From: Dictyostelium discoideum | Lineage: Eukaryota | Direction of reading: 5' to 3' | NCBI GenBank assembly: GCA_000004695.1 | Contig: CM000153.2 | Location: 4,384,001-4,448,000, forward strand | DNA length: 64,000 nt | Shown here: piece by piece, positions 2,579 to 3,703 of the stretch | Layout of the letters: each line of letters starts with the position of its first letter | Numbering within the stretch: position 1 is the stretch's first letter | The notes under the pieces: model-generated | Databases searched by the model: none | What the model was told of the DNA's origin: nothing | The model's input: only the letters and a program-made list of their open reading frames with translations | Position numbers and translations under genes: made by a program

Positions 2579-3703
2579 ATGGAAACAAAATATCATGAAT
2601 ATGATGATGTACAAACAAAAGATACACCATCAAATAAATATTCATTAAATGAAAATAGAGGTGACCTTATATTTTTAATTATGGAAATCATTGGTGAATC
2701 ATGTAATTCAATCTATGACTCATTTACATTGGATGCCCCACAATTTGCATTTAGAGGTATTGATAAAACTTTATCAAAAGATGGTGAAATTGGTAAACTT
2801 ATAACGATAATTAAAAATTTGATAAAAGAACAATCCTATTTATTAAAATCACCAATGACAAATAATAATAATAATAATAATAATAATAATAATAATAATA
2901 ATAATAATAATAATAATAATAATAATAATAATAATAATAATAATAATAATAATAATAATAATAATAATAATAATAATAATAATAGTTATAATAATAATAA
3001 TATCAATGATAACAATAATAGTAGTAATAATAATAATAATAATTTAGAATATAATACAAAAGGTGGAGAATATATATCATCAAATCAATCATCACCTTTA
3101 TCAATTTATTCAACACCACCAAATCCATCATCTTATGTATCATCACCTTTAAATCAACCAGCAAATAACACTGAAGCTTTCCAAATTAATGGAAATGAAT
3201 TGGATGCTGCTCAAATTAAAATCAAACAATTGGAATTAGAATTACAAAAATTTAAAGAAGCAGGTGCTTTATTCGCCATGAATAAAATTAATAACTCTTC
3301 TGCACCACCTCCACCTCCTAAAGCTTGTGCACCACCACCACCTCCACCACCTCCACCACCCATTACAGTAGTTAAACAACCATCATTCTTAATGAAAAAA
3401 GGTGTTAACAACAACAACAACAACAACAACAACAACAACAGCAGCAACACTAATGATAGTAACAATACAAATAATACAAAACCACAACCAACATTTAATT
3501 TTGCAGATGTCTTATTAAATAGACCTCAATTAAAGAGAGTTAGTAAAGATAGATCTCCAGGTGGTACACCAGCTAAAGAACCAAAGAATAAAAGTGGAAG
3601 TGTAGAAGATGCACTTCTTAAGGCAATCGTTAGTAAATTCAAGCATGCAAATTCATCACCTGTCAAATCTCATGATGATTCATCTGATAGTGACTTTGAA
3701 TAA
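2579..3703 (+). CDS. Low-complexity protein with an N-terminal folded region, N41 tract, coiled coil, polyproline, and a C-terminal WH2-connector-acidic (VCA-like) tail. Candidate actin nucleation-promoting factor.
   Basis: 374-aa ORF in the ORF track with an ATG start and a TAA stop. It contains APPPPPKACAPPPPPPPPPP followed by ADVLLNRPQLKRVSKD (WH2-like: LLxxIxxxxxLKKV), then EDALLKAIVSKFKHA (amphipathic C-region-like), then the acidic end DDSSDSDFE. It sits between AT-rich intergenic DNA on both sides. Confidence 0.6.
   Translation: METKYHEYDDVQTKDTPSNKYSLNENRGDLIFLIMEIIGESCNSIYDSFTLDAPQFAFRGIDKTLSKDGEIGKLITIIKNLIKEQSYLLKSPMTNNNNNNNNNNNNNNNNNNNNNNNNNNNNNNNNNNNNNNNNNSYNNNNINDNNNSSNNNNNNLEYNTKGGEYISSNQSSPLSIYSTPPNPSSYVSSPLNQPANNTEAFQINGNELDAAQIKIKQLELELQKFKEAGALFAMNKINNSSAPPPPPKACAPPPPPPPPPPITVVKQPSFLMKKGVNNNNNNNNNNNSSNTNDSNNTNNTKPQPTFNFADVLLNRPQLKRVSKDRSPGGTPAKEPKNKSGSVEDALLKAIVSKFKHANSSPVKSHDDSSDSDFE
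2861..2983 (+). repeat. (AAT)~41 trinucleotide tract encoding polyasparagine inside CDS 2579..3703
   Basis: Direct reading of the sequence: an uninterrupted run of aat units. Confidence 0.9.

Follow-up and report, generated by a model that had tools for sequence, protein, structure and literature searches.

A divergent MTFR/PRR11-family protein in Dictyostelium discoideum with a conserved, WH2-like and possibly actin-directed tail

We analysed a window of 64,000 nucleotides of Dictyostelium discoideum DNA (assembly GCA_000004695.1, contig CM000153.2, positions 4,384,001 to 4,448,000 of the forward strand) and report here on one open reading frame (ORF) in it, which runs uninterrupted on the plus strand from ATG to TAA at 2579..3703 and encodes a protein of 374 residues. 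This protein is almost certainly a divergent, previously unrecognised dictyostelid member of the MTFR/PRR11 family, by which we mean the animal mitochondrial fission regulators MTFR1, MTFR2 and MTFR1L together with proline-rich protein 11 (PRR11). An earlier reading made from the letters of the DNA, referred to below as the sequence-only reading, had described the same ORF as a small protein with a WH2-connector-acidic (VCA-like) tail behind a polyproline tract, and had put it forward as an uncharacterised Arp2/3 nucleation-promoting factor (NPF). The ORF and all of the elements then listed were found where that reading had placed them, namely the coiled coil (AAQIKIKQLELELQKFKEAG, within a helix predicted at residues 209-237), the polyproline tract, the WH2-like helix, the C-like motif (EDALLKAIVSKFKHA, residues 343-357) and the terminal DDSSDSDFE. 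What it had passed over is an invariant RSPGGTP inside its “basic linker”, and the (AAT)61 microsatellite that makes up the poly-Asn tract.

The closest match to the protein comes from a D. discoideum isolate, at 98% identity, and the best matches and the sequence composition agree in identifying D. discoideum as its source. Both termini are identical in the NCBI gene models of other D. discoideum isolates and species (P0001-P0006), those of the isolates differing only in repeat length, and because these models have both ends in common we take the single-exon model to be sound. Among isolates of D. discoideum and its sibling species the Asn tract differs markedly in length: their orthologues count 333-349 residues vs 374 here and are otherwise near-identical. 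The exact protein of the window is not found in a collection of 15 billion proteins, which does hold the near-identical isolate proteins; in the reference annotation, repeat length or gene model may be different. A word-indexed search returned orthologues from Dictyostelium species only, all labelled “hypothetical”, plus two weak unnamed matches with the same order of parts. Around 40% of the protein is low-complexity sequence rich in Asn, Ser, Thr or Pro, and the poly-Asn tract is the source of all spurious whole-protein matches to Pfam and, by phmmer against all chains, to the PDB (Nup188, NDC1, Vir1p and Asn-rich Dictyostelium nucleoporins among them), which we discarded as noise. One could thus imagine a spurious or non-functional low-complexity ORF whose motifs arose by chance in an AT-rich, repeat-rich genome. 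We give this reading next to no credence, as it is refuted by conservation: across at least seven dictyostelid genera the orthologues have conserved head, coiled coil and tail alongside repeats that vary, and in distant eukaryotic families the tail finds matches at E=1e-13 to 1e-17. The elements listed in the sequence-only reading are invariant or nearly so in ten other dictyostelid orthologues, each labelled hypothetical at NCBI, at identities down to 28%, and since they are kept in this way they are not products of chance.

Table 1. Features of the 374-residue gene. Positions are nucleotides of the window; AF2, AlphaFold2; pLDDT, predicted local distance difference test score; TRF, Tandem Repeats Finder
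Feature	Residues	Position	Strand	Remarks
Complete single-exon gene of D. discoideum, almost certainly an MTFR/PRR11-family member	374 + stop	2579..3703	+	
Three-helix head (25-50, 55-64, 70-89)	25-89	2651..2845	+	AF2 pLDDT ~57-83; kept within dictyostelids only
(AAT)61 microsatellite; poly-Asn spacer (~60 Asn), predicted disordered		2861..3043	+	TRF; AF2 pLDDT <50
Coiled-coil helix KIKQLELELQKFKEA...	209-237	3203..3289	+	Homologous to MTFR coiled coil KIxALExELxxLRxQIA; AF2 pLDDT ~90
Polyproline tract APPPPPKACAPPPPPPPPPP	242-261	3302..3361	+	Directly after coiled coil; in PF05308-equivalent region
V-like (WH2-like) motif FNFADVLLNRPQLKRV	306-321	3494..3541	+	Short FADVLL helix, then LKRV
RSPGGTP	325-331	3551..3571	+	AK comes next, making TPAK a TPx[KR] site; two proline-directed Ser/Thr sites
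Amphipathic basic helix VEDALLKAIVSKFK	342-355	3602..3643	+	Equivalent of family IAxALKKKF helix; C-like
Acidic Ser-rich end DDSSDSDFE	366-374	3674..3700	+	Phe at -2; A-like motif

An exhaustive profile search of 1.84 billion representative proteins yielded 520 relatives at E<=1e-3, 128 of them at E<=1e-10, nearly all of 200-450 residues and with a match that covers the whole profile and lies near the C-terminus. The relatives spread over Amoebozoa, Breviatea, Rhizaria and Metazoa. Source names among them include mitochondrial fission regulator 2 (or 2-like), in an echinoderm, a monotreme and a nematode, as well as PRR11 of mammals and birds; a bird PRR11 was also retrieved by a profile of the C-terminal half of the protein. 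Further relatives come from Polysphondylium, Heterostelium, Acytostelium, Tieghemostelium, Cavenderia, Ceratiomyxa, the breviate Pygsuia and the rhizarian Plasmodiophora, all hypothetical except two that bear the source name “WH2 domain-containing protein”, these being the Cavenderia fasciculata orthologue and the Plasmodiophora protein. The Pfam model of the animal family, PF05308 (Mito_fiss_reg), is passed by 47 of 80 sampled relatives, with a best E of 2e-68. Counting against the assignment, PF05308 (gathering threshold 26.3 bits) has no match at E<=10 on the whole protein of the window or on its segments; dictyostelid P0016 is likewise negative, and the non-metazoan relatives P0034, P0039, P0028 and P0050 pass. 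PF05308 ends just short of the RSPGGTP/ALKKKF tail, and the relatives match its profile positions ~90-244 only. Because the model stops before the tail module, it leaves out what is best conserved in the family. We note that MTFR and PRR11 are apparently linked only through this module beyond PF05308, and that PF28520 and PF28521, which are precomputed for PRR11, made no appearance in our local Pfam scans.

To exclude any help from bridging sequences, subfamily-pure profiles (dictyostelid-only, MTFR-only and PRR11-only) were compared by hhalign. The dictyostelid profile aligned with that of the MTFRs at 99.8% probability (E=1.1e-28) over 146 collinear columns comprising coiled coil, polyproline and tail, and with that of PRR11 at 99.1% (E=1.8e-18) over a 48-column tail. 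Polyproline can inflate profile scores, and the comparison was therefore repeated on isolated segments. The tail alone, stripped of polyproline, matched MTFR at 98.8% (E=7.2e-17) and PRR11 at 98.0% (E=2e-13), and the coiled coil alone matched that of MTFR at 96.9% (E=1.7e-10), with mismatched segments as controls giving P=0.4-0.9. From these segment-wise and subfamily-pure matches it follows that the protein is in all likelihood a genuine but divergent member of the family, and not an orphan; its architecture is nearer to that of MTFR, and the curated PF05308 model does not reach far enough to detect it.

The tail module common to the family reads Φx[DE]ΦL..L[KR][KR]V, then RSPGGTP, then an ALKKKF helix and an acidic F/W patch, at tightly fixed spacing, and recurs with that spacing in ~140 distant relatives; its MTFR form is ΦxDΦLK..VKLRxV-x-RSPGGTP..IAxALKKKF. 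RSPGGTP is invariant in every alignment made and constitutes the strongest family signature. Its core in the form [RK][ST]PGG is present in 150 of 161 family sequences, and these 150 have L[KR]x[VTS] just upstream in 142 cases, an ALxxKF helix downstream in at least 130 and polyproline upstream in 143. LKKV and the Arg of RSPGG lie 7 residues apart in 80 cases and 5 in 50; from this Arg to the helix Ala the family median distance is 26 (interquartile range 25-27), vs 24 in the protein of the window, and from the helix to the acidic-aromatic residue both the median and the protein of the window give 24, so that its spacing of (7, 24, 24) stands beside family medians of (7, 26, 24). Its V motif scores 9.7 bits against the family V profile. 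In the basic helix A349, K353 and F354 are invariant in ten dictyostelid sequences, and the Ala and Phe columns are invariant or nearly so throughout the family.

The acidic-aromatic patch is enriched in the family and is not universal: an acidic patch with F, W or Y after the helix occurs in 55 of 135 members vs 24.5 expected from shuffled tails (2.2-fold; control region 15%), the aromatic residue being F in 34, W in 18 and Y in 3 of the patch-bearing relatives. Within seven aligned Dictyostelium sequences D366, S368, S369, D370, S371, D372, F373 and E374 are all invariant, and S369 and S371 in the patch, as well as S364 two residues upstream of it, fit an S-x-x-[DE] context. The second proline-directed site is also well kept, with [ST]P after the GG in 122 of 140 members and TPx[KR] in 81 of 140. 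The RSPGGTP sites provide a proline-directed kinase context, which by the established consensus would point to kinases of the CDK or MAPK type. As for the polyproline tract, residues 242-261 are a candidate ligand of profilin, SH3 or EVH1 domains. A side observation concerns the ends of several other dictyostelid orthologues (P0016, P0017, P0021, P0058), which read NDDSFFSDSD(N/D)(D/E)F, where the D. discoideum group has no more than SDSDFE; the longer end resembles an acidic-tract FFAT or phospho-FFAT (VAP-binding) motif.

A full-length AF2 model, computed from an 80-sequence alignment (mean pLDDT 60.5), places helices at residues 25-50, 55-64, 70-89, 209-237 (confident), 308-313 and 342-355 and leaves the remainder disordered. 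The head, for which a prediction had been called for earlier, comes out as the first three of these helices. A tail-only model (mean pLDDT 74, predicted template modelling score 0.29) returns the same two tail helices at a local pLDDT of 80-86, and a β-bridge that brackets RSPGGTP. Such a combination of high local and low global confidence is characteristic of motifs that become folded when a partner is bound. The two tail helices coincide with the V and C motifs, and Foldseek found nothing in the PDB for either the full-length or the tail-only model. Within the head E36, G39 and P54 are invariant among dictyostelids, and Y46 and D47 nearly so. Searched by itself the head has no relatives outside the dictyostelids among 5.8 billion proteins and, like the tail scanned by itself, no Pfam match at E<=10, in line with the earlier remark that it matched no WH1, SHD, WAHD1 or other NPF head. 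Its likeness to the N-terminal helices of MTFRs (LIFLIMEIIGES vs LLQMLLEYLGLS), attractive by eye, was rejected: hhalign gave P=0.046 and a probability of 1.2%, hidden Markov model scores were no better than those of shuffled decoys in both directions, and the two have in common only a loose ΦΦxΦΦΦ[ED]ΦΦG pattern. In animal MTFRs this part of the protein contains a mitochondrial-targeting helix, ARMC1-binding helices and an [FL]AD[IV] motif that binds a pocket of Miro (PMC9651865, PMC11980836, PMC10897228). As no MTFR targeting element is recognisable in the head of the Dictyostelium protein, its subcellular site, mitochondrial or other, is not inferable.

The resemblance of the V motif to WH2 was assessed with a profile of 26 positions, built from the 24 residues upstream of RSPGG in every third family member, unselected for the feature. 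Against the PDB this V profile gave four matches at E<=10, three of which are WH2-actin structures, all in register on LKKV: the N-WASP tandem WH2 (3m3n_W, E=0.024), a ciboulot/thymosin-β4 chimera (3sjh_B, E=0.35, 20 positions) and Cobl (4jhd_C, E=0.76). The same sequences reversed matched Dpo4 variants and CLASP1 only (best E=0.54) and no WH2. A WH2-like link to actin is plausible because the V profile retrieves WH2-actin structures, because two relatives are named for WH2 and because PRR11 has been published in connection with Arp2/3; from its sequence the V motif of the 374-residue protein might bind actin, which we hold to be a little less than an even prospect. PRR11 itself carries tandem V-like motifs (LKKT/LKKV), for instance LKDLLNVKLKKT followed by LRKHLKKV (P0013, P0020, P0022, P0029, P0043 and others), which are reminiscent of tandem-WH2 nucleators and of which we found no mention in the PRR11 literature searched.

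The connector-acidic part was assessed in the same way. When the tail profile was enriched for acidic-aromatic ends, its only PDB matches were two N-WASP CA peptides (9dlz_H, E=0.41; 9dlx_H, E=0.56). Neither an unbiased tail profile nor the Dictyostelium tail alone gave any PDB match at E<=10, and we rejected the N-WASP CA match as an artefact of picking acidic-aromatic tails, reproduced neither with a systematic subsample nor with a single sequence. Because the match is lost without the enrichment, we treat the C-A part as a pattern resemblance only. These data bear on the proposal that the protein is a true WASP-family NPF, with a homologous V-C-A tail that activates Arp2/3 as in WASP, SCAR and WASH. 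The order and spacing of the tail (V at residue 306, C at 342, aromatic residue at 373), the enriched CA match and the match of the V profile to N-WASP WH2 all speak for it. It is opposed by the loss of the CA match with unbiased data, by the lack of significant similarity to any WASP-family region and of a WH1, SHD or WAHD1 head, by the Phe of ...SDSDFE (noted as such before and confirmed here) where canonical A regions have Trp, and by RSPGGTP and the F of ALKKKF, which have no equivalent in any VCA; the strong collinear homology is to MTFR/PRR11 instead. WASP-family homology is thus largely refuted already, and we deem it very improbable.

Of the claims in the sequence-only reading, the VCA-like order survives in part. 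The order is real and family-wide, its V segment being WH2-like at a sub-threshold level and its C-A segment only reminiscent, as judged from sequence; it is not of WASP-family origin, and the idea of an additional small VCA protein of the WASP kind was wrong. As to an uncharacterised Arp2/3 NPF, the strong form of the claim fails, there being no WH2/VCA profile match above noise and the gene being part of a family that already has a name, MTFR/PRR11, and the WH2-like pattern, which is real, leaves the NPF a plausible hypothesis. Genuine Arp2/3 nucleation-promoting activity of the 374-residue protein nevertheless appears unlikely to us.

What is known of the animal proteins points in two directions. 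Published links to Arp2/3 and F-actin exist for one family member, PRR11, which is reported to associate with Arp2/3, to recruit it and to promote F-actin as well as filopodia; a part in cytoskeleton assembly has been ascribed to both its N- and C-termini (PMC8720695). MTFRs bind Miro and ARMC1, oppose TRAK2-dependent retrograde movement and influence the balance of fission and fusion (PMC10897228, PMC11980836, PMC9651865), and whether they act directly on the fission or fusion machinery has been stated to be undetermined (PMC11980836). In the literature searched we found no pairing of MTFR1 with “nucleation-promoting factor”, nor of PRR11 or “mitochondrial fission regulator” with WH2, no report of a Dictyostelium MTFR homologue and no discussion of the conserved MTFR/PRR11 tail.

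We lean, with somewhat better than even confidence, towards a family scaffold with an actin-directed, phospho-regulated tail, and several results weigh against it in addition to the Phe, the RSPGGTP without a VCA counterpart and the unreproduced CA match given above. The Pfam WH2 model (PF02205) has no match on the protein, on the isolated tail, on 10 relatives (E<=10) or on 80 relatives (E<=1e-3), some 90 relatives in all, a negative that is not absolute, as HMMER filters can lose very short weak matches. All WH2 matches are sub-threshold and depend for the most part on the LKKV core. Only 6 residues long as predicted, the V helix lacks two residues in the D. discoideum group compared with MTFRs; a typical WH2 helix makes about three turns, and FADVLL (308-313) is shorter. 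The head has no detectable homology to the MTFR targeting helices (mitochondrial, ARMC1, Miro), and residues 1-205 hold no Miro motif of the [FL]AD[IV] type, which in MTFRs takes the form [FL]AD[IV]PW and precedes the coiled coil. The data on PRR11 and Arp2/3, finally, are co-localisation and pull-down from one group, and the filopodia effect maps to proline-rich region 2 (residues 185-200), not to the tail (PMC8720695).

The main alternative is an MTFR-family organelle adaptor without a direct role in actin. Its tail would form one composite site, for docking or under control by phosphorylation, that engages a partner other than actin (a kinase, a phosphatase or an adaptor of the Miro/ARMC1 type, for example), with the WH2/VCA likeness convergent or coincidental. 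The rigid spacing from LKKV to RSPGG to helix (7 or 5, then 25-27) and the invariant RSPGGTP suggest a single recognition unit unlike any VCA, the predicted β-bridge flanks RSPGGTP, and no WH2/VCA match rises above threshold. On the other hand, WH2-actin structures come up specifically with the V profile and are missing from its reversed control, and polyproline beside a WH2-like motif is the classic arrangement for delivery of profilin-actin. Published MTFR mechanisms, which involve Miro, ARMC1, TRAK2 competition and OPA1 (PMC10897228, PMC11980836, PMC9651865), favour the adaptor, function being ascribed to Miro/ARMC1/TRAK competition and OPA1 levels, not to actin (PMC11980836, PMC9651865), and the report of PRR11 with Arp2/3 (PMC8720695) speaks against it. 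A further point seemed to favour it, in that FADV of the tail helix (residues 308-311, nucleotides 3500-3511) is identical to the motif by which MTFR1 enters the ELF pocket of Miro (FADV/FADI/LADI; PMC10897228). As a Miro-pocket motif this FADV is improbable, failing on position, being homologous to the C-terminal M[AM]DV of MTFRs and not to the N-terminal Miro motif. On balance we consider the organelle adaptor doubtful, though more probable than the other alternatives.

In the favoured reading, that of a family scaffold with an actin-directed tail, the coiled coil would make the scaffold dimeric and the lineage-specific three-helix head would target it to a cellular site, the animal MTFR counterpart docking on mitochondria through Miro and ARMC1. 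The polyproline tract would recruit profilin-actin or SH3/EVH1 proteins, and the tail would act as effector, with the WH2-like V motif taking an actin monomer and the basic helix plus acidic-aromatic end perhaps contacting Arp2/3, as reported for PRR11. Proline-directed phosphorylation of S326-P and T330-P-A-K, positioned between the two helices, might then toggle the tail on and off. The broader notion, that the tail of the entire family is an ancient actin module (WH2-like V, RSPGGTP phospho-switch, basic helix and acidic F/W patch) present at least in Amorphea and Rhizaria, we think improbable at present. Should it be true, MTFRs and PRR11 would be site-anchored factors that deliver actin monomers or recruit Arp2/3, and the 374-residue protein, which is single-copy, has one V motif and ends exactly at the acidic-Phe patch, would offer the smallest form of the module on which to prove it.

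In MTFRs and PRR11 alike, conservation is strongest in a tail beyond the curated Pfam domain, and the WH2-like motif beside polyproline in this tail supplies a concrete hypothesis open to mutation. A single-copy, intron-less homologue in Dictyostelium, a premier model for both actin and mitochondrial dynamics, offers a cheap test, and its existence shows the MTFR/PRR11 family to be far older than the animals. Even if the link to actin proves wrong, a set of “hypothetical” dictyostelid proteins gains a useful re-annotation.

Three neighbouring ORFs of the window may be mentioned. The convergent ORF 4115-5608 (-) encodes 497 residues with two polyproline runs, a (QH)n repeat and Ser/Thr-rich sequence and belongs to no Pfam family. 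ORF 9013-9918 (+) encodes an NmrA-like NAD(P)-binding protein (E=8e-15) and ORF 10653-11507 (-) a MATH-domain protein (E=9e-17), both unrelated to the finding on the 374-residue gene.

Set beside known systems, the V motif is like the WH2 domains of N-WASP, thymosin-β4/ciboulot and Cobl in that a short amphipathic helix is followed by a motif of the LKKV type (L318-K-R-V here), and, as in the WH2 of WASP and WAVE, it adjoins polyproline. It differs from WH2 domains in standing at a fixed distance from RSPGGTP, which these domains lack. With the VCA regions of WASP, N-WASP, SCAR, WAVE and WASH the tail has in common the order of polyproline, V-like motif, basic amphipathic helix and acidic patch with a penultimate aromatic residue, a similar overall spacing, and Ser in an S-x-x-[DE] context within the acidic patch, comparable sites in the WASP VCA being phosphorylated by CK2. 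The protein differs from the WASP family in having no regulatory head of the WASP type and in belonging to another homologous family.

Within that family, PRR11 has polyproline followed by a basic L-K-[KR]-G stretch (LLLKRG vs FLMKKG here), LKKV-x3-RSPGGTP, a helix of the ALRRKFQ type and a C-terminal aromatic-acidic end (SFDE vs SDFE here). It departs from the protein of the window by a GTGLTP insert before the helix, which the latter lacks, by an unrelated N-terminus (hhalign against the head, P=0.81), by only weak similarity in the coiled coil (74.8%, E=2.6e-5) and by the presence of two to three tandem V-like motifs in 12 of 13 PRR11 sequences, compared to one in the protein of the window, in all dictyostelids and in MTFRs. 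Compared with MTFR1, MTFR2 and MTFR1L, its V motif is 2 residues shorter, and it stops at the acidic-Phe patch where MTFRs run on with SP-rich sequence. Like them it has, in collinear order, the coiled coil (KIxxLExEL), polyproline, one V-like motif, RSPGGTP and the ALKKKF helix, followed by an acidic Phe-containing stretch (DDSFDKEN in MTFRs), in a protein of similar size (~300-400 residues).

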